Assembly: GCA_965198005.1 (NCBI GenBank)
Contig: CBDAOI010000003.1
Span: 128,001-192,000, forward strand
From: Spirochaetia bacterium
GTDB lineage: Bacteria > Spirochaetota > Spirochaetia > SZUA-6 > Bin103
DNA length: 64,000 bases
Direction of reading: 5' to 3'
Positions 4,173 to 47,256 of this stretch are shown here, piece by piece. The translations under genes and the position numbers were made by a program. The number at the start of each line of letters is the position of its first letter. Within the stretch, counting starts at the first letter, position 1. The notes under the pieces were generated by a model. It was given only the letters and a program-made list of their open reading frames with translations. It was not told the origin of the DNA and did not search any database.

Positions 4173-4911
4173 TTCAGACTTCCTGACCTCAGCCGGAATC
4201 AGGTGACACTTTCTGGCGGCGGATCACCGGCCACCTCGTAGACGAGCCTGAGTTCGGTGCCGGGATAGATCGTGCGGGTGGCGTTGAGTTCCTTGATCAG
4301 AGGAGCGAGCATTCGGTCACAGGCGTCGCTGCCGAGGCCCAGAAGCTGGATCCGCAGAATTCCCTTGGCCGGCTCGGGAATGATGTTGGCGGCGGAGGTC
4401 AGCAACGCGCGCAGCAGCCTGCGGGCATTCGGTTTCTTGCCCTGGGCGCTGATCACGGGCGCCATCATCCGGGTCTCCGCGCGATAAGCGATCATCCGCA
4501 CCACGTCCATGAACAGCCGCCCGCCAACGGGAAGGGCGTCCAGCCGGTCCTGCTCCGACAGGTCGCCGGCGCGGACATGGGTAGGGGTGTCGGCCCGCTC
4601 CTGCCTGAGTGCCTCGAGTCGTTCGTCCAGCGCCTGGGCGTCAGCCTCAAGGCGAGTGGTGGTGTCCCGGTTGGGTTCCTTCAGTGCCACGGCGAGGCGA
4701 TTGCGGGCCGCTGACAAGCGGCTGCGTACCCGCCTGATGGTCTTTTCGAGGGCGCGGCGCACGGGGTTCACGACCTGTGCGTCGGGGTCAATCGGATCAA
4801 GGTCATGGGTGGGCAGGGAGTCGAGGTTGAACTGCTCGCGCAGGTACTTGAAGAAGTTCTCCTGCGACCAGCGCGAGAACATGGAGCCGGCGACCTGCTC
4901 CAAGGGCATCT
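4173..4911 (-). mobile_element. 3' half and end of an IS with a DDE-type putative transposase, truncated by the four-gene element
   Basis: MFSRWSQENFFKYLR and RMIAYRAET...LNATRTIYPGTELRLVYE; element end ttcagacttcctgacc abuts the HNH gene. Confidence 0.7.
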
Positions 4912-5063
4912 TGTTGCCCGCCAGGTGAGATTTCCGGGATGTGGACAAATCCGCCAGTGGGGGTAGGATAGGTTCGTCCGGGAAGCGTTCCGGAGATCAC
5001 GAAAAAAGATAGGGGCCACCGCCAGTACTTACTCCGGGTACAACGGTGACCCCCACCTAAAAG

Positions 5064-5735
5064 CTGGATCATCCTGAACTAGACGGCTTCGACTTTCAAG
5101 CCTACCGCCAATCCCTGATCAGAGAAGGCGGCAAGCGTCCCTGCGTGCTGTGCGGGGAGAGCCATGCGGTGGTGATTCATTGCTACTGCAAACGCCTGGT
5201 GCGGTGCACCGACGGCAGTAATCACCAACACCTGATCGTGGTGATCATCTGTGAGCGGGCGCGGGAAGCGGGCGCCCAGTACACCAAACGCATGCTGCCG
5301 TGGTTTGTGATTCCCGAGTGCAACATCAGGCTCGACCTGGTGCTCGAGCTGCGGAAGAAGCACCCCACGGCCGGCAGCGCGCGTGACCACGGCTACGCGG
5401 TGATCGGCAGTCCCTGTGAGCGCACCATCGCTCGTCATCTGCTGTGGGTGGACGACAACATCGCAGCGATGCTGCTGGAGGTGAACGAGTGGGTGGCCGA
5501 GCTGGCGCCGTTCACCGCCTTGCCACCGGTGCGCGTGGGCGAAGGTGCGCTGGCGCAGTTGCGGCGCTCAGTGGCCGCGCTGGAGGATGCCAGACAGGCC
5601 GCGCTCGGTATCACCGTAGCGTTCACCGTTATCGGCTGCGTTCACCTCGCCTACGTCGCGGAGCGCGCCCGGAGCCCCCCGCCGATTCCATTGAGTCTAG
5701 TATTTCGAGGCGGCTGTTGGTTCGATACCACTTAA
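5064..5735 (+). CDS. Cys-rich Zn-finger protein, DUF6431-like (transposon orf1); start uncertain
   Basis: CVLCGESH...HCYCKRLVR...IICE...YTKRMLPWFVIP; frame open upstream of 5145 to a stop at 5058. Confidence 0.65.
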   Translation: MDHPELDGFDFQAYRQSLIREGGKRPCVLCGESHAVVIHCYCKRLVRCTDGSNHQHLIVVIICERAREAGAQYTKRMLPWFVIPECNIRLDLVLELRKKHPTAGSARDHGYAVIGSPCERTIARHLLWVDDNIAAMLLEVNEWVAELAPFTALPPVRVGEGALAQLRRSVAALEDARQAALGITVAFTVIGCVHLAYVAERARSPPPIPLSLVFRGGCWFDTT

Positions 5736-5760
5736 GCATCCACCCTCAGGAGGCATCAAA

Positions 5761-6354
5761 GTGGATCAACTACTGGTTTCCCCCGACCGTTTGGCGCAGC
5801 TGGAAGAGCTGCTGCTGCTCTTTCATCGGATCTTGACCGAACCGACGCCACCGCCACGCCGCCGCGACTGGTTGCTGGAGCATTGCCGGCGCAGGAGCGC
5901 CGATGAGCGCGATCTGTGGCGTGCCCTGGCTGGCTACCGCAGCAGCGATGCGACGGCGTTGCTGCACGCCGACCACACTCGGGGGTCGATCTTCAGCCGC
6001 CAGGCGGCGCTGGTGCGGGAGAACATTCTGAGCCAGCTCATCGATGCTCCCCAGTGCGTGCTGGGCGGGTTCGATGAACTCTCCCAGCTGCTGCAGCTGA
6101 TCGGCGACCGGTTGCAGTTTCTCTGTGACTGGGTGCTGGAGTTGTTCCTCACTCCCGAGCCGTGGCAGCCGATCGATTCACACCACCTGGAGGTAGCCGG
6201 CGAGGTGCTGCTGCAGAAGCTCGCCGAGGAGGTCGAGCGCCTGCGTGAGCTGTACGCTGAGCAGCCCCGCCTGTCCCTCGACGAGCTCACCAGCGAGTAC
6301 CGCGATTGGCTGTGCCGGCGGGCCGTCGTCGGCGAGCGCGAGGACCTCGAATGA
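5761..6354 (+). CDS. Unknown Leu/Glu-rich helical protein (transposon orf2)
   Basis: SD AGGAGG before GTG; stop overlaps transposase ATG (ATGA); intact in both copies. Confidence 0.75.
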   Translation: MDQLLVSPDRLAQLEELLLLFHRILTEPTPPPRRRDWLLEHCRRRSADERDLWRALAGYRSSDATALLHADHTRGSIFSRQAALVRENILSQLIDAPQCVLGGFDELSQLLQLIGDRLQFLCDWVLELFLTPEPWQPIDSHHLEVAGEVLLQKLAEEVERLRELYAEQPRLSLDELTSEYRDWLCRRAVVGEREDLE

Positions 6355-7754
6355 GCGGCCCCGACTTCCCTTGGGAGCAGATCCCGGACGCGGCCATGGA
6401 GGCGTTTGACGAACGCCTGCGCTTGGTCGAGATGCTGCTCGACCCGCACATCGGGAACGCCGACAAACGCGCGGAACGCCGGCGCTACTGCGAGCAGCAT
6501 CGGGTTGGGGAGCGCACCATCAGAGGCTACCTCCACCGCTATCGCAAGAAGGGCCCCCGGGGGCTGCTGTTCTACCGGCCGCGGCCCACCTCGCCTCGCG
6601 TCCACGATCCTGGGCTGCGCGCCAAGCTCCTCGATCTGGTCAACGAGCTGCCCACCAGGAGCGTCCCCCAACTGCGCAAGCTGCTCGCCACCGACGATCA
6701 GTTGGGCAGCAAGATCAAACGCATCTCAGATCGCACCATCTACCGCTTCCTGGCCGAGCAGGGTCTCACCCAACAGGTCCGCTACCGCATGCTCGCTGAA
6801 GACTCGCGCAGCTCCTACCGCTCGTTCGAGGCACCGCACTCCCTGGCCCTCCTGCAGGCCGACGCCCGCGACGGCATCTGGCTCGACACCCCCCAAGGCC
6901 GCAAGAAAACCTACCTGTTCCTCTGGATCGACGACTTCTCCCGCAAAATCCTGTTCGGCAAGTACTATTTCGACGAGAAGCTGCCCGCCCTGATGGACAG
7001 CTTCCGCTATTGCGTCCTGCGTTACGGCGTGCCGGTTCGGTGCTACGTCGACAACGGAAAAGTTTACATCTCGCGCCACATGCTGGCCATCCTGGTCGAG
7101 TTACAGGTCAAACGAGTGCGCCACCCGCCCTATCAAAGCTATTGCAAGGGGAAAGTCGAGGCGCTCAACAAGATCATCAAGAACCAGTTCCAACGTGAGG
7201 CCCAAGTCGCCGGGATGCGTACTCTCGATGAACTGAACTCCGCCTTCTGGGCCTGGATGGATCTGGAATACAACGTCCGCGTCCACTCAGCCACCGGCCA
7301 GAGTCCCGATGCACGTTTCCGCGACGGGCTGCCCGCCGACCACCGCCGGATCACCGATCTGGAGACCTTCAACGCCCTGTTCCTGTGGCGCGAACGGCGC
7401 ACCGTCACCAAGTACGGCAGGATCAAGCTGCACGGCAACCAATACCCTGTCACCAGCGTCCCCCATGGCAGCGTCGTCGAGGTCCGCTTCGATCCCTACG
7501 ACCTCGCCCAGCTTGCCATCTACGACCCCGGCGGCGGCCTGCTGGAGACCACCAGCACTTCCAAACAGGTCACCACACAGGTGCCGGCGGTCCCCGAGGA
7601 GTCCCGCGCCAAGCCGCCTGAGGTGTCGGCCGCCGCCCGGGACTACTTCACCCGCCTGCGCGAGCAGCACCACGCCCGGCTTCGCGACCGTAACCAGACT
7701 TCGTTCAGCCAGTTCCGCACTACCCCCAAGGAGCACCACGATGCAGATGCATGA
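6351..7754 (+). CDS. DDE integrase/transposase (Mu/TnsB/IS21-like) with HTH N-terminus
   Basis: LQADARDG (D), YVDNGKVY (D), KGKVEALNK (E), YNVRVHSATGQSP, C-terminal VEVRFDPYDL. Confidence 0.92.
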   Translation: MSGPDFPWEQIPDAAMEAFDERLRLVEMLLDPHIGNADKRAERRRYCEQHRVGERTIRGYLHRYRKKGPRGLLFYRPRPTSPRVHDPGLRAKLLDLVNELPTRSVPQLRKLLATDDQLGSKIKRISDRTIYRFLAEQGLTQQVRYRMLAEDSRSSYRSFEAPHSLALLQADARDGIWLDTPQGRKKTYLFLWIDDFSRKILFGKYYFDEKLPALMDSFRYCVLRYGVPVRCYVDNGKVYISRHMLAILVELQVKRVRHPPYQSYCKGKVEALNKIIKNQFQREAQVAGMRTLDELNSAFWAWMDLEYNVRVHSATGQSPDARFRDGLPADHRRITDLETFNALFLWRERRTVTKYGRIKLHGNQYPVTSVPHGSVVEVRFDPYDLAQLAIYDPGGGLLETTSTSKQVTTQVPAVPEESRAKPPEVSAAARDYFTRLREQHHARLRDRNQTSFSQFRTTPKEHHDADA

Positions 7755-8506
7755 TCACGTTCGGCAAGCACCTCCAGCCCGCCGACACGTTCCTCTCCGC
7801 CGCCCATCAGGAGGCGCTCTCCCGCCTCTCCTTCGGCGTCGCCGACGAGGATCTCCTGCTCCTCACCGGCCCCATCGGTTGCGGCAAGTCGGTCGCCCTC
7901 GCCGCCTTCGTCAGCGAACTCGACGGCAACCGCTACCGCCCCCTCTACGTCCGCGGCGCCGGCCTCTCGGAAGCCCAGCTCTACAAGGCGATCCTCGATG
8001 AGTTGAAGATCGATCCGCCGTTCTTCGCCGGCCAGGCCAAGCAGCTGTTCTTCAAGACCATCCCCGAGCTGACCAAGAAACCACTAGTCATCCTCGACGA
8101 TGCTCAGGACCTTGCGGCCACCGCCCTGACGGCCATCAAGAACATGGTCAACTTCGCCTTCGACACCAAAAACTCCATCACCTTCGTCCTCGCCGGCCAA
8201 CCCGAGCTGCGCGAGTTGCTCAGATATGCTTCCTTCGCTTCCTTGCGCCAGCGCATCCGTATCTCCTATCACATGCCGGCCATGGCTCTGGAGGAGACCT
8301 GTCGCTACATCGACCACCACACCGTCCGCTGTGGCCGCCCTGCCTCGATCTTCGCCGATGATGCCAAAGCTGACATTCACCGCCACGCCGGTGGTGTGCC
8401 GCGCTTGGTCAACGCCGTCTGCTATCGCTCCATCCTGCACGCCGTCGCCAACGACATCAGCATCATCGACTCCACCAACATCGTTGCCGATGAACTCCAC
8501 GACTAA
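7751..8506 (+). CDS. ExeA/TnsC-like AAA ATPase, N-terminus damaged by a 32-bp deletion relative to copy 2
   Basis: Walker A GPIGCGKS, Walker B LVILDDAQ, LAGQPEL, GGVPRLVN. Confidence 0.88.
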   Translation: MITFGKHLQPADTFLSAAHQEALSRLSFGVADEDLLLLTGPIGCGKSVALAAFVSELDGNRYRPLYVRGAGLSEAQLYKAILDELKIDPPFFAGQAKQLFFKTIPELTKKPLVILDDAQDLAATALTAIKNMVNFAFDTKNSITFVLAGQPELRELLRYASFASLRQRIRISYHMPAMALEETCRYIDHHTVRCGRPASIFADDAKADIHRHAGGVPRLVNAVCYRSILHAVANDISIIDSTNIVADELHD

Positions 8507-8619
8507 CCGCGACAGCCGGCACCGCTGGCGTTCGCCGCTGGCGGATACCAGCATCACAGGCTGGCACGCGCTGGCAACCCTGCTTGGCACGGTTTGGAAA
8601 CGGCGGCTGGCTGGAAACA

Positions 8620-41272: not shown

Positions 41273-41975
41273 CTACTCCTGCTCGAACCCGTGATCGGTG
41301 AACTTGAGCGTTCGGCTGTTCTCGGTAACCGTACGCACGATGTGCTCGGGGGCGCCATCCGGGATTTCTGCTTCGATCTCCAGCGTCACGGTCAGGTTTG
41401 CACGCACCAGCCCGGCGAGATGCGCGATCACCTCATCGGCGATCTGGCTGGCATCGCGGCCGACGCGGGCAGCGTCGAGGGTAACGGCGCCGTGAAAACG
41501 CTTCAGTAGCCGCGGGGGAGGAGGCGGGGGCGGTGGGGGGTCTGGCCCGTTGCCTCCGTTGCCATTGCCACCACCGTTCGGAGGCGCGGGAACTGGCGCA
41601 TCGAGTTGCTTCCGGGCCACCGCGGGCTTGACGAGCAGACCCGGAGCATCTGCGTCGGGCAAGTTGATCCGATCTTGGACGCGTAGACCGCTATAACGTC
41701 CGGAACCCTCGTCGAAACTTTCGGCGAAAGCGAATGATTCCTGCTCCCAGGTCATCAACGACGTACCATCGCCGATGCTGCGCAACAGGACCTCCGGGCC
41801 CTTGAGCCGGGGCAGGTAGAGGTAGAGGTAGCGCGCGAAATCCTCGGCGAGTTGGGCAACGGACACGTGGTCGCCACGCCAGAGCGGGACACGGTCCAGC
41901 TCCATCCGCAAGAGCGTAGCGCCGTACGCGGTCATGAGCCCGTCCTGCGCCCGCAGCCGGCGGGACGCGCGAACC
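41273..41975 (-). pseudogene. C-terminal fragment of DUF499-family ATPase
   Basis: LWRGDHVSV, YLYLPRL, RFHGAVTLD...RTVTENSRTLKF. Confidence 0.75.
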
Positions 41976-42171
41976 GCTGCCCAGCCGGTGCTTGCCCACT
42001 ATGGAGCCCCTCCCGTCGCTGTCCAGCTCGCCGCGGCGCTTCTACTTCGACGGCAGCATCTACGACGGCTGGTCCAACGTGCCCAAGCGGTTCAGGGACC
42101 CGTTCTCCGACGTATCCGAGCCGAGTCGAATCACGGCCCCAACAATCTTCAGCTTCAAGTGGGAGTTGTGA

Positions 42172-42390
42172 CCTGAGCCACAGCCAGTTGTGCCAGAACG
42201 CCTGCCAGAAGGAGCGGTCCTCGAACAGCAGCCGGCGGAAGTTCTCCAGGCCGATGAACTCCGCCGGCCCGATGCCCGACCACTCGGTCATCGAGTAGTA
42301 CACGGCGCTCACCGACGGGCTGATCTTGACGACGAAGTGCAGCAGCAGAATCGGGACGATGAACGCCCAGGCGATCAGGCGCGCCCTGCT
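42172..42390 (-). pseudogene. Sugar ABC permease N-terminal fragment, start cut off by transposon copy 2
   Basis: YYSMTEWSGIGPAEFIGLENFRRL; its GTG lies at 46196 beyond the element. Confidence 0.8.
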
Positions 42391-42542
42391 TGTTGCCCGC
42401 CAGGTGAGATTTCCGGGATGTGGACAAATCCGCCAGTGGGGGTAGGATAGGTTCGCCCGGGAAGCGTTCCGGAGATCACGAAAAAAGATAGGGGCCACCG
42501 CCAGTACTTACTCCGGGTACAACGGTGACCCCCACCTAAAAG

Positions 42543-43214
42543 CTGGATCATCCTAAACTAGACGGCTTCGACTTTCAAGCCTACCGCCAATCCCTGATCA
42601 GAGAAGGCGGCAAGCGTCCCTGCGTGCTGTGCGGGGAGAGCCATGCGGTGGTGATTCATTGCTACTGCAAACGCCTGGTGCGGTGCACCGACGGCAGTAA
42701 TCACCAACACCTGATCGTGGTGATCATCTGTGAGCGGGCGCGGGAAGCGGGCACCCAGTACACCAAACGCATGCTGCCGTGGTTTGTGATTCCCGAGTGC
42801 AACATCAGGCTCGACCTGGTGCTCGAGCTGCGGAAGAAGCACCCCACGGCCGGCAGCGCGCGTGCCCACGCCTACGCGGTGATCGGCAGCGCCTGTGAGC
42901 GCACCATAGCGCGTCATCTGCTGTGGGTGGACGACACCATCGCAGCGATGCTGCTGGAGGTGAACGAGTGGGTGGCCGAGCTGGCGCCGTTCACCGCCTT
43001 GCCACCGGTGCGCGTGGGCGAAGGTGCGCTGGCGCAGTTGCGGCGCTCAGTGGCCGCGCTGGAGAAGGCCAGACAGGCCGCGCTCGGTATCACCGTAGCG
43101 TTCACCGTTGTCGGCTGCGTTCACCTCGCCTACGTCGCGGAGCGCGCCCGGAGCCCCCCGCCGCTTCCATTGAGTCTAGTATTTCGAGGCGGCTGTTGGT
43201 TCGATACCACTTAA
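42543..43214 (+). CDS. Zn-finger DUF6431-like protein (orf1, copy 2)
   Basis: Near-identical to 5064..5735. Confidence 0.65.
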   Translation: MDHPKLDGFDFQAYRQSLIREGGKRPCVLCGESHAVVIHCYCKRLVRCTDGSNHQHLIVVIICERAREAGTQYTKRMLPWFVIPECNIRLDLVLELRKKHPTAGSARAHAYAVIGSACERTIARHLLWVDDTIAAMLLEVNEWVAELAPFTALPPVRVGEGALAQLRRSVAALEKARQAALGITVAFTVVGCVHLAYVAERARSPPPLPLSLVFRGGCWFDTT

Positions 43215-43239
43215 GCATCCACCCTCAGGAGGCATCAAA

Positions 43240-43833
43240 GTGGATCAACTACTGGTTTCCCCCGACCGTTTGGCGCAGCTGGAAGAGCTGCTGCTGCTCT
43301 TTCATCGGATCTTGACCGAACCGACGCCACCGCCACGCCGCCGCGACTGGTTGCTGGAGCATTGCCGGCGCAGGAGCGCCGATGAGCGCGATCTGTGGCG
43401 TGCCCTGGCTGGCTACCGCAGCAGCGATGCGACGGCGTTGCTGCACGCCGACCACACCCGGGGGTCGATCTTCAGCCGCCAGGCGGCGCTGGTGCGGGAG
43501 AACATTCTGAGCCAGCTCATCGATGCTCCCCAGTGCGTGCTGGGCGGGTTCGATGAACTCTCCCAGCTGCTGCAGCTGATCGGCGACCGGTTGCAGTTTC
43601 TCTGTGACTGGGTGCTGGAGTTGTTCCTCACTCCCGAGCCGTGGCAGCAGATCGATTCACACCACCTGGAGGTAGCCGGCGAGGTGCTGCTGCAGAAGCT
43701 CGCCGAGGAGGTCGAGCGCCTGCGTGAGCTGTACGCTGAGCAGCCGCGCCTGTCCCTCGACGAGCTCACCAGCGAGTACCGCGATTGGCTGTGCCGGCGG
43801 GCCGTCGTCGGCGAGCGCGAGGACCTCGAATGA
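43240..43833 (+). CDS. Unknown helical protein (orf2, copy 2)
   Basis: One amino acid difference (P/Q) from 5761..6354. Confidence 0.75.
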   Translation: MDQLLVSPDRLAQLEELLLLFHRILTEPTPPPRRRDWLLEHCRRRSADERDLWRALAGYRSSDATALLHADHTRGSIFSRQAALVRENILSQLIDAPQCVLGGFDELSQLLQLIGDRLQFLCDWVLELFLTPEPWQQIDSHHLEVAGEVLLQKLAEEVERLRELYAEQPRLSLDELTSEYRDWLCRRAVVGEREDLE

Positions 43834-45290
43834 GCGGCCCCGACTTCCCTTGGGAGCAGATCCCGGACGCGGCCATGGAGGCGTTTGACGAACGCCTGCG
43901 CTTGGTCGAGATGCTGCTCGACCCGCACATCGGGAACGCCGACAAACGCGCTGAACGCCGCCGCTACTGTGAGCAGCATCGGGTTGGCGGGCGCACCATC
44001 CGAGGCTATCTCCACCGCTACCGCAAGAAGGGCCCCCGGGGGCTGCTGTTCTACCGGCCGCGGCCCACCTCGCCTCGCGTCCACGATCCTGGGCTGCGCG
44101 CCAAGCTCCTCGCGCTGGTCAACGAGCTGCCCACCAGGAGCATCCCTCAACTGCGCAAGCTGCTCGCCACCGACGATCAGTTGGGCAGCAAGATCAACCG
44201 GAATTGCCATCTACCGCTTCCATGGCCGAGCAGCCGGTCACCTCATCTCAGATCGCACCATCTACCGTGGCCGAGCAGGGCCTCACCCAGGCGGTCCGCT
44301 ACCGCATGCTCGCTGAAGACTCGCGCAGCTCCTACCGCTCGTTCGAGGCACCGCACTCCCTGGCCCTCCTGCAGGCCGACGCCCGCGACGGCATCTGGCT
44401 CAACACCCCCCAAGGCCGCAAGAAAACCTACCTGTTCCTCTGGATCGACGACTTCTCCCGCAAAATCCTGTTCGGCAAGTACTATTTCGACGAGAAGCTG
44501 CCCGCCCTGATGGACAGCTTCCGCTATTGCGTCCTGCGTTACGGCGTGCCGGTTCGGTGCTACGTCGACAACGGAAAAGTTTACATCTCGCGCCACATGA
44601 TGGCCATCCTGGTCGAGTTACAGGTCAAACGAGTGCGCCACCCGCCCTATCAAAGCTATTGCAAGGGGAAAGTCGAGGCGCTCAACAAGATCATCAAGAA
44701 CCAGTTCCAACGTGAGGCCCAAGTCGCCGGGATGCGTACTGAACGATTCCGCCTTCTGGGCCTGGATGGATCTGGAATACAACGTCCGCGTCCACTCAGC
44801 CACCGGCCAGAGTCCAGATGCACGTTTCCGCGACGGGCTGCCCGCCGACCACCGCCGGATCACCGATCTGGAGACCTTCAACGCCCTGTTCCTGTGGCGC
44901 GAACGGCGCACCGTCACCAAGTACGGCAGGATCAAGCTGCACGGCAACCAATACCCCGATCACCAGCGTGGCGCGAACGGCGCACCCCCAGTGGCAGCGT
45001 CGTCGAGCGTCGTCGAGGTCCGCTTCGACCCCTACGACCTCGCCCAGCTGGCCATCTACGACCCCGGCGGCGGCCTGCTGGAGACCACCAGCGCCTCCAA
45101 ACAGGTCACCACACAGGTGCCGGCGGTCCCCGAGGAGTCCCGCGCCAAGCCGCCCGAGGTGTCGGCCGCCGCCCGGGACTACTTCACCCGCCTGCGCGAG
45201 CAGCACCACGCCCAGCTCCGCGACCGCAACCAGACTTCGTTCAGCCAGTTCCGCACTACCCCCAAGGAGCACCACGATGCAGATGCATGA
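43830..45290 (+). pseudogene. DDE transposase copy 2, frameshifted
   Basis: Local scrambled duplications or indels near 44200-44270, 44740 and 44955-45010. Confidence 0.88.
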
Positions 45291-46074
45291 TCACGTCCTC
45301 TCCTTCTTCGGCTTCTCCCGCCTGCCGTTCGGCAAGCACCTCCAGCCCGCCGACACGTTCCCCTCCACCGCCCATCAGGAGGCGCTCTCCCGCCTCTCCT
45401 TCGGCGTCGCCGACGAGGATATCCTGCTCCTCACCGGCCCTATCGGTTGCGGCAAGTCGGTCGCCCTCGCCGCCTTCGTCAGCGAACTCGACGGCAACCG
45501 CTACCGCCCCCTCTACGTCCGCGCTGCCGGCCTCTCGGAAGCCCAGCTCTACAAGGCGATCCTCGATGAGTTGAAGATCGATCCGCCGTTCTTCGCCGGC
45601 CAGGCCAAGCAGCTGTTCTTCAAGACCATCCCCGAGCTGACCAAGAAACCACTAGTCATCCTCGACGATGCTCAGGACCTTGCGGCCACCGCCCTGACGG
45701 CCATCAAGAACATGGTCAACTTCGCCTTCGACACCAAAAACTCCATCACCTTCGTCCTCGCCGGCCAACCCGAGCTGCGCGAGTTGCTCAGATATGCTTC
45801 CTTCGCTTCCTTGCGCCAGCGCATCCGTATCTCCTATCACATGCCGGCCATGGCTCTGGAGGAGACCTGTCGCTACATCGACCACCACACCGTCCGCTGT
45901 GGCCGCCCTGCCTCGATCTTCGCCGATGATGCCAAAGCTGACATTCACCGCCACGCCGGCGGCGTTCCGCGCCTGGTCAACGCCGTCTGCTATCGCTCCA
46001 TCCTGCACGCCGTCGTCAACGACATCAGCATCATCGACTCCACCAACATCGTTACCGATGAACTCGACAGCTAA
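45277..46074 (+). CDS. ExeA/TnsC-like AAA ATPase, intact
   Basis: MQMHDHVLSFFGFSRLPF, GPIGCGKS, LDDAQ. Confidence 0.9.
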   Translation: MQMHDHVLSFFGFSRLPFGKHLQPADTFPSTAHQEALSRLSFGVADEDILLLTGPIGCGKSVALAAFVSELDGNRYRPLYVRAAGLSEAQLYKAILDELKIDPPFFAGQAKQLFFKTIPELTKKPLVILDDAQDLAATALTAIKNMVNFAFDTKNSITFVLAGQPELRELLRYASFASLRQRIRISYHMPAMALEETCRYIDHHTVRCGRPASIFADDAKADIHRHAGGVPRLVNAVCYRSILHAVVNDISIIDSTNIVTDELDS

Positions 46075-46214
46075 CCTCCACCAGCCGTCGGCGGCACTCC
46101 CCGCTGGCGGCCGCCCGGCATCAGTGCCAGGCGCGCTGCGGCAATCCTGCTTGGCACGGTTTGGAAACGGCGGCTGGCCGGCAACACCCTGCTCACGGTC
46201 TTTCCATTGGGTGT

Positions 46215-47256
<1,042 letters not shown>

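Follow-up and report, generated by a model that had tools for sequence, protein, structure and literature searches.

Tn6049 was named in genome work on Cupriavidus metallidurans CH34 as a 3.5 kb element present in 12 copies and carrying a 'gspA-like' ATPase (Janssen et al. 2010, PMC2864759). On plasmid pHS87a it was described with 12-bp TGT...ACA repeats and a 4-bp target duplication (Bi et al. 2016, PMC4739549), and Table S5 of Van Houdt et al. 2012 (PMC3414803) lists 'Tn6049 related transposons' with four genes (Mob prot, TnpA, ATPase, UF). These elements form a branch of the Mu/Tn7 superfamily that was named and catalogued in 2010-2012 and is mechanistically unstudied; the accessible parts of the literature on DUF6431, on Tn6049 and on TnsB, Tn552 and Tn5053 contain no mechanistic study of Tn6049-type elements. 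The element analysed here lies in a window of 64,000 nucleotides from a Spirochaetia bacterium (assembly GCA_965198005.1, contig CBDAOI010000003.1, positions 128,001 to 192,000), to which all positions below refer unless another contig is given. It is a variant within the Tn6049-like branch and not a wholly undescribed family. A reading made from the letters of the window without database searches (the sequence-only reading) had proposed a distinct, poorly described family, a proposal that is not supported in this form, given the probable homology of the first gene to that of Tn6049 and the tabulation of related transposons in PMC3414803. With a probability of roughly 70%, we regard the element as an autonomous, cargo-free transposon of ~3.74 kb that belongs to the Tn6049-like group, and thus to a mechanistically unstudied branch of the Mu/Tn7/Tn5053 superfamily characterised by a TnsB-type transposase and an AAA+ ATPase. 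Its features in the window are as follows (HTH, helix-turn-helix; aa, amino acids).

42384..42390, no strand: left 7-bp target duplication of copy 2, CCCTGCT, direct repeat
42391..42530, plus strand: left end of copy 2; terminal repeat of 13 bp, TGTTGCCCGCCAG, and internal CCGCCAG at element positions 40 and 108
42543..43214, plus strand: orf1, encoding a putative zinc-ribbon (DUF6431-like) and HTH protein
43240..43833, plus strand: orf2, 197 aa, helical, with a weakly HTH_32-like N-terminal half; its TGA overlaps the ATG of tnpA
43830..45290, plus strand: tnpA of copy 2, frameshifted gene for a TnsB/MuA-type DDE transposase
45277..46074, plus strand: gene for an AAA_22 ATPase (MuB/TnsC/TniB-like) of 265 aa that starts MQMHDHV; overlaps the end of tnpA
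46075..46186, plus strand: right end of copy 2; GCCAG/CTGGC repeated several times, terminus CTGGCCGGCAACA
46187..46193, no strand: right 7-bp target duplication of copy 2, CCCTGCT, direct repeat
4912..8619, plus strand: copy 1, without target duplication; orf1 at 5064/5145-5735, orf2 at 5761-6354, intact tnpA at 6351-7754 (467 aa from ATG) and ATPase gene at 7751-8506 with a 33-bp in-frame deletion

Element and Tn6049 resemble each other in overall form and in gene order. Both are compact (3.74 and 3.5 kb), cargo-free, present in many copies per genome and bounded by TGT...ACA ends, and in both a zinc-ribbon first gene is followed by an rve-type DDE transposase gene and an overlapping gene for an AAA_22 'gspA-like' ATPase. 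The first genes are homologous by profile comparison, and in both elements the transposase gene serves as an insertion site for RIT (recombinase-in-trio) elements. On pMOL28, the first gene of Tn6049 encodes 181 aa, the DDE transposase 479 aa and the AAA_22 ATPase 277 aa, followed by a gene for 71 aa; the ends read TGTG...CACA and are flanked by the 5-bp duplication TATGG. The element from the window differs in that orf2 has been added before tnpA while the small gene after the ATPase gene is absent, in a target duplication of 6-7 bp as opposed to 4-5 bp, in a Mu-transpos_C domain that is not detected in the Tn6049 transposase at E<=0.01, and in its hosts, which are Spirochaetota and Bacteroidota instead of Proteobacteria. 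There is no full-length nucleotide match and no close protein match to Tn6049.

The closest annotated transposases in the plasmid collection, 30-36% identical to TnpA, are those on a Streptomyces plasmid (NZ_CP109471.1) and on a plasmid of Thermobacillus composti (NC_019898.1). On the former, a gene for a DUF6431 and HTH_23 protein (38 bits, above the cut-off) precedes the pair encoding the rve/Mu-transpos_C transposase and the AAA_22 ATPase. On the latter, the DDE and AAA_22 pair is preceded by an unannotated open reading frame (ORF) in which the same pattern, CxxC...CxxC...LPxF, was read by eye, the Pfam scan of the plasmid elements having covered the Streptomyces proteins only. In the Streptomyces element, by contrast, a 92-aa gene separates the DDE and ATPase genes, orf2 has no equivalent, and the first gene scores above the DUF6431 cut-off, whereas orf1 of the element described here never does.

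Two of the four proteins are recognisable. TnpA (467 aa from the ATG) matches the Pfam families HTH_32, rve and Mu-transpos_C, and when a profile built from eight relatives was compared with the PDB, the best match was TnsB of ShCAST (E 2.9e-24) over profile positions 10-426, which is nearly full length. D186, D249 and E285 are invariant in all eight aligned TnpA sequences and constitute, judged from the family, the predicted DDE triad. The ATPase belongs to AAA_22 (E 6.5e-17); its profile finds MuB first (8e-8), then VchTnsC (8e-6) and then ShTnsC, and the Walker A and Walker B residues are invariant among the aligned relatives. With single sequences as queries, the PDB yielded nothing for the ATPase and, for TnpA, only the cores of retroviral integrases. 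Neither TnsA nor TniQ nor a recombinase was matched by any of the four proteins in Pfam and NCBIfam, and the element has no room for an additional gene such as TnsA or a resolvase. The earlier assignment to DDE plus AAA+ transposons of the Mu/Tn7/Tn5053/Tn552 kind, with multiple end repeats, without detectable TniQ and without resolvase or cargo, is thereby upheld.

The ends of the element are defined as follows. The terminal inverted repeats of copy 2 (TGTTGCCCGCCAG / TGTTGCCGGCCAG) match at 12 of 13 positions, and the right end of copy 1 reads TGTTTCCAGCCAG. Element positions 7, 40 and 108 carry CCGCCAG sites; five GCCAG cores are found at the right end, one of them inside CCGCCAG. Both ends have TGTTkCCrGCCAG and an internal site of the type CAAAyCCsyGCCA in common, and a conserved block, TAGGATAGGTTCGCC, is present at element ends. 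Across four elements, the left ends (240 bp, mostly non-coding) can be aligned with 83% identity, far above the ~54% identity of the orf1 proteins in the same four elements, and the right ends with 78% identity. Copy 2 is flanked by the direct repeat CCCTGCT (42384-42390 and 46187-46193), a 7-bp match that chance would produce about once in 16,384 cases per copy, and its removal restores the empty site GTG AGC AGG GCG CGC CTG on the minus strand. The imperfect 13-bp repeats, the CCGCCAG repeats, the duplication and the empty site had all been pointed out before, and all were recovered here.

Relatives of the element were sought by a transposase scan over one genome per species, which reduced 131 candidate stretches to 7 loci from four metagenome-assembled genomes (MAGs) of Spirochaetia, one of Spirochaetales and one of Bacteroidales. 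The complete loci retain the order orf1-orf2-tnpA-ATPase. Among the spirochaete relatives identity is ~79% for TnpA, ~80% for the ATPase, ~54% for orf1 and ~57% for orf2, while the Bacteroidales element has a TnpA with 55% and an orf1 with 32% identity, and a shorter orf2 (136 aa) in the same position. The ATPase is present in every complete relative examined and orf1 is retained in every relative examined. As the sequence-only reading had it, orf1 and orf2 are conserved beside the transposition genes in other genomes, and they are therefore functional parts of the element. Three spirochaete relatives are flanked by clean 6-bp duplications (GCTGGA, CGGTGC and GTCTGG), and the Bacteroidales element by an imperfect one (TTATGG/TTATGC). 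The duplication is thus not fixed at 7 bp, as had been assumed from copy 2; taken together, 6 bp in the relatives and 7 bp here imply that a 6-7-bp duplication is made and that its loss in most local copies is secondary. Beyond these loci, 21 of the 301 genomes sampled from the class (the source genome included) and 17 of 135 genera contain the orf1 family, and the source genome has the most matches (8).

The orf1 family comprises 109 clusters when grouped at 90% identity and, in a profile search, 190 at 50% identity. No Pfam or NCBIfam model is matched by orf1 itself. The only recurrent Pfam match is DUF6431, which was obtained for 9 of 28 family members (E<=1) and 6 of 39 remote relatives (E<=0.01), with a best E of 7e-4 and every score under the 26.6-bit cut-off. 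Comparison by hhalign of the orf1 profile with the Tn6049 first gene and its counterparts from the Streptomyces and Thermobacillus plasmids gave a probability of 81% (E 1.2e-5, 157 columns). We consider it quite probable that orf1 is a homologue of the Tn6049-type first gene, with a zinc ribbon followed by an HTH. Its structural model (pLDDT, the predicted local distance difference test, 82.7) shows beta-hairpins and then helices. When this model was aligned with VIA-align over 48,161 chains, the best Z was 4.0, with no coherent family and no TniQ listed, an outcome that would also fit a diverged TniQ, and the protein Atlas search gave no usable match for orf1. A role in DNA binding is suggested by the sequence motifs of the protein. 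For a predicted complex of orf1 with the ATPase the score was 0.00 against a mark of 0.32, a value that counts neither for nor against binding.

The second gene has a narrower distribution. Relatives routinely lacking orf1 or orf2 would, according to the sequence-only reading, have spoken against its proposal; orf1 is present in every relative examined, whereas orf2 is missing from all four same-class elements with a TnpA 49-52% identical to that of the element, where orf1 abuts tnpA with no room between them. For this reason orf2 is regarded as a subclade-specific addition. Its family comprises 26 clusters, and its model is poor (all-helical, pLDDT 58.5) and not usable for a fold search. Five of 20 members match HTH_32 weakly (best E 6e-4), and the orf2 profile can be aligned, again weakly (E 0.0011, probability 21%), with the transposase of the same element at residues 30-144, so that orf2 is possibly derived from the transposase N-terminus. 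Some regulators encoded by insertion sequences carry the DNA-binding domain of the transposase, and by analogy orf2 may be a regulator.

The process that we favour combines these components as follows. The four genes orf1, orf2, tnpA and tnpB (the AAA_22 ATPase gene) are translationally coupled; an ATGA overlap joins orf2 to tnpA and, in some copies, also tnpA to the ATPase gene. TnpA would bind the repeated CCGCCAG-type sites at both ends and transfer the TG...CA 3' ends into a target cleaved with a stagger of 6-7 bp, and the ATPase, like MuB, TnsC and TniB, would load on target DNA and activate TnpA. The orf1 protein, core to the whole group, would be a DNA-binding accessory factor that chooses or marks targets or recognises the element ends, and orf2 a regulator confined to one subclade. 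Transposition is probably replicative, because neither TnsA nor a resolvase is encoded, and resolution would be left to host recombination. In Tn7-like elements, the absence of tnsA together with a resolvase has been read as replicative transposition (PMC8649781). Unresolved replicative events would explain both the lost duplications in most copies and the deletions adjoining them.

Several observations weigh against this interpretation. The identity to Tn6049 is low, with 24% over 205 aa for TnpA (BLASTP E 9e-15) and 22% over 256 aa for the ATPase (BLASTP E 3e-12). The link between orf1 and Tn6049 depends on alignments of little depth and on Pfam scores under the threshold; Tn6049's own first gene has no Pfam hit, and taken alone it reaches a probability of only 2% against the orf1 profile. 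The orf1 model has no solved look-alike, as Foldseek returned nothing from the PDB at E<=0.001. The loss of duplications can equally result from homologous recombination between the many copies, and the group has no member in which binding, transposition or a cointegrate has been observed. Finally, the start of orf1 is problematic. The protein has 196 aa from the GTG at 42624, or 223 aa from a possible CTG start at 42543, shortly after an in-frame TAA. Upstream of the GTG the coding sequence is conserved (KLDHPKLDGFDFQAY...RPCVLCG), and a protein that started at the GTG would miss the first cysteine of the CxxC. The N-terminal region is preceded in all eight left ends by GTG ACC CCC ACC TAA (42525-42545 in copy 2, 5046-5066 in copy 1), which means that an in-frame TAA follows four codons past the sole upstream canonical start, and in two relatives the corresponding position is taken by a stop or a +1 shift. 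The CTG two codons past the TAA is invariant in four elements and is the sole candidate start that retains the CxxC; it may be a non-canonical start of orf1.

Of the alternative explanations, the one that survives best is that the element is a cryptic member of the Tn7/Tn5053 family in which orf1 is a strongly divergent TniQ/TnsD and brings the ATPase to selected targets, although we think this unlikely. TniQ-family proteins combine a zinc ribbon with an HTH, which is also the layout proposed for orf1. TnsB is the best solved relative of TnpA, and TnsC, with MuB, of the ATPase. With the Tn5053, Tn402 and Tn7-like elements, including the type V-K CRISPR-associated transposons, the element has in common a TnsB/TniA-type transposase, a TnsC/TniB-type ATPase and subterminal repeat arrays, and TnsA is absent from it as it is from Tn5053 and the V-K systems. 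Multiple transposase-site repeats at the ends are likewise known from Tn7, Tn5053 and Tn552 (PMC8649781). However, TniQ (PF06527) was not matched by any of the 28 orf1 family members (E<=1) or 39 remote relatives (E<=0.01), the duplication is 6-7 bp and not the 5 bp of Tn7 and Tn5053, there is no resolvase, res site or cargo, and the insertion sites are diverse and not a single attachment site.

Duplications of 6 or 7 bp are made by Tn552 of Staphylococcus aureus, which also has a DDE plus ATPase core with proteins of similar size (482 and 262 aa). A close kinship with Tn552 was ruled out, and the distance is greater than that to Tn6049, as the transposase of the Tn552-like element on pMW2 is just 20% identical over 178 aa (E 3e-6), the ATPases are not significantly similar (E 13), and the resolvase BinL, which in Tn552 accompanies the p480 transposase and the p271 ATPase, has no counterpart here.

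Less likely still is an IS481-type cut-and-paste insertion sequence with a passenger ATPase, orf1 and orf2 that are not needed for movement, the duplications having been lost by homologous recombination only. TGT...ACA ends and variable duplications are IS481 traits as well, the RefSeq label of the Tn6049 transposase is 'IS481 family', and the many copies flanked by fragments of mobile elements would suit scrambling by recombination. IS481 is also the best NCBIfam model for TnpA (E 4.3e-39, positions 2-280 of 284), but its score of 134.7 bits is far under the curated cut-off of 224, and IS481 elements have a single gene while the element has four, and a TnpA with a Mu-transpos_C domain. A passenger role is difficult to reconcile with an ATPase that is coupled, is present in every complete relative examined and is conserved at 80% where orf1 is at 54%. 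IS21 was rejected on similar grounds, since the transposase model scored 41.2 bits against a cut-off of 160 and the IstB model 17 bits against 200.

That the element is not a discrete unit but what remains of a Mu-like prophage or some larger genomic island can be dismissed, because in spite of the MuA-like and MuB-like proteins there are no phage genes inside it, its sharp boundaries are identical in 7 genome copies, and the duplications of the relatives enclose just the four genes. What it shares with phage Mu is the Mu-transpos_C domain, an ATPase with MuB as best solved relative and a plausible replicative mode; it differs in its size of 3.7 kb, and the duplication made by Mu is 5 bp.

A further elaboration of the Tn6049-like reading, which we offer only tentatively and hold to be rather doubtful, would make the DUF6431-type orf1 an overlooked third core component of a widespread Mu/Tn7 branch that is free of TnsA, TniQ and resolvase. 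It would act as a DNA-binding adaptor that tells the ATPase where to assemble, an analogue of TniQ/TnsD with an unrelated fold, while orf2 would be a built-in inhibitor that arose from a free-standing copy of the transposase N-terminus, and unresolved replicative events would reshape the host genome.

Although the element is present twice in the window, as first reported, matches occur at 11 places in the whole source genome (4.89 Mb, 4 contigs, ~66% G+C), with sharp TGT...ACA boundaries. They correspond to 9 copies or remnants, of the following kinds.

Full-length copies: 5, of 3708-3796 bp
Canonical form: C4:404145-407886, 3742 bp
Split copy: 1, with a 3.5-kb insert within
Internally deleted copy: 1, with ~330 bp gone
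Right part only: 1
Left end only: 1, of 341 bp

The two window copies are less alike than the term 'near-identical' used for them suggested. Over the aligned columns the identity is 97.56%; mismatches number 90 and gap columns 120, and the separate BLAST blocks have 97.8%, 94.7% and 95.3% identity with many indels. In copy 1 the ATPase gene has lost 11 conserved codons by its in-frame deletion of 33 bp, and with them the N-terminal FFGFSRLP, of which 6 of 8 residues are invariant among six aligned ATPase relatives. The four-gene set is present in copy 2, yet its tnpA shifts frame at least twice (near 44200 and near 44739) and has a stretch replaced in frame (near 44970-45005), so that as assembled three genes are intact and tnpA is broken. 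Unless the indels are assembly errors, copy 2 is a non-autonomous relic. Compared with copy c4 (G000:C4:1127321-1131059), copy 2 has just 12 substitutions (99.68% identity), yet 85 gap columns; the stretches concerned are 44200-44242, 44969-45004 and 45293-45324, and at least the 43-bp insert in copy 2 resembles an imperfect tandem duplication of adjoining sequence. The indels of copy 2 could be due to replication slippage or to long-read assembly error.

Copies without a duplication, which the sequence-only reading would have counted against itself, are the rule in the source genome. Only one of the seven two-ended copies, copy 2, has retained it and six have not. Inversions and reciprocal recombinants were sought by comparing the 8 left flanks with the 8 right flanks by eye, and no matching pair was found. 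The flanks of many copies are fragments of other genes or mobile elements. To the right of copy 1 there is a truncated peptide-permease gene, and copy c4 sits in a peptide-permease gene of which ~90 codons are gone at the junction. In four public sequencing runs compared with copy 2, the contigs are short and break at element ends, and none connects 42390 with 46187, which speaks neither for nor against an empty site or an insertion polymorphism. Loose ends at 42391 with other flanks are present in 2 of the 4 runs; these fit with other insertion sites, yet they are not independent evidence.

The left flank of copy 1 encodes the C-terminal 236 aa of a Transposase_29 (PF21804) protein (4199-4911, minus strand, E 1.1e-35), which is severed exactly at the left end of the copy and is part of another truncated mobile element. 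A further fragment of the permease family interrupted by c4 (residues 114-140) is found 1.4 kb downstream of that copy, which points to a more complex local rearrangement. The 'sugar permease' at whose start copy 2 was said to be inserted does begin there, but is only a remnant of its N-terminal ~71 aa that then runs out of frame; it has 37.5% identity over 48 aa (E 2.7e-4) to the start of a full-length permease paralogue. The surroundings of copy 2 (46194-47256, minus strand, and 41273-42384) are a patchwork of gene pieces: on one side the N-terminal part of an SNF2/DEAD-like helicase gene, terminating at the insertion site, next the 71-aa sugar-permease start and then an unrelated ORF of 220 aa. 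This region is already rearranged, independent of the insertion.

In the split copy (c6), tnpA is interrupted by a RIT element (G000:C3:906389-909883; L034:190-3684) that encodes three tyrosine recombinases in tandem (342, 338 and 411 aa), each with a match to Phage_integrase. The point of insertion falls precisely on the codons for the catalytic YVD|NG motif of tnpA, with the junctions GCTACGTCGA|TTATCCCGAA... and ...ATGCCGAATTCGGCATTTCGTCGAC|AACGG. In another genus (L026:2815-2930), a related tnpA with 49% identity is interrupted at the same YLD codons; its junction reads GTACCTCGA|TTATGCCGAAG..., again with ATGCCGA motifs and then a tyrosine recombinase gene. These two cases suggest homing of these RITs to the Asp codon in this family of transposases. 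For Tn6049-related transposons, RITs located within the transposase gene have already been reported (PMC3414803).

Transposons with TnsB and an AAA+ ATPase are the chassis of CRISPR-guided DNA insertion tools, for which target choice is the central question. The Tn6049-like group is common, and no member has been studied biochemically. The analysis ties a subfamily from spirochaetes and Bacteroidales to this group, in which the putative zinc-ribbon/HTH gene represents a conserved third component and orf2 a later addition. The interest lies mainly in the branch itself, in this conserved component and in the added orf2, none of which has ever been studied. The sequence-defined ends and duplications provided here can be used as the basis for a mini-transposon assay. 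In the source genome, the element marks sites of deletion and rearrangement.

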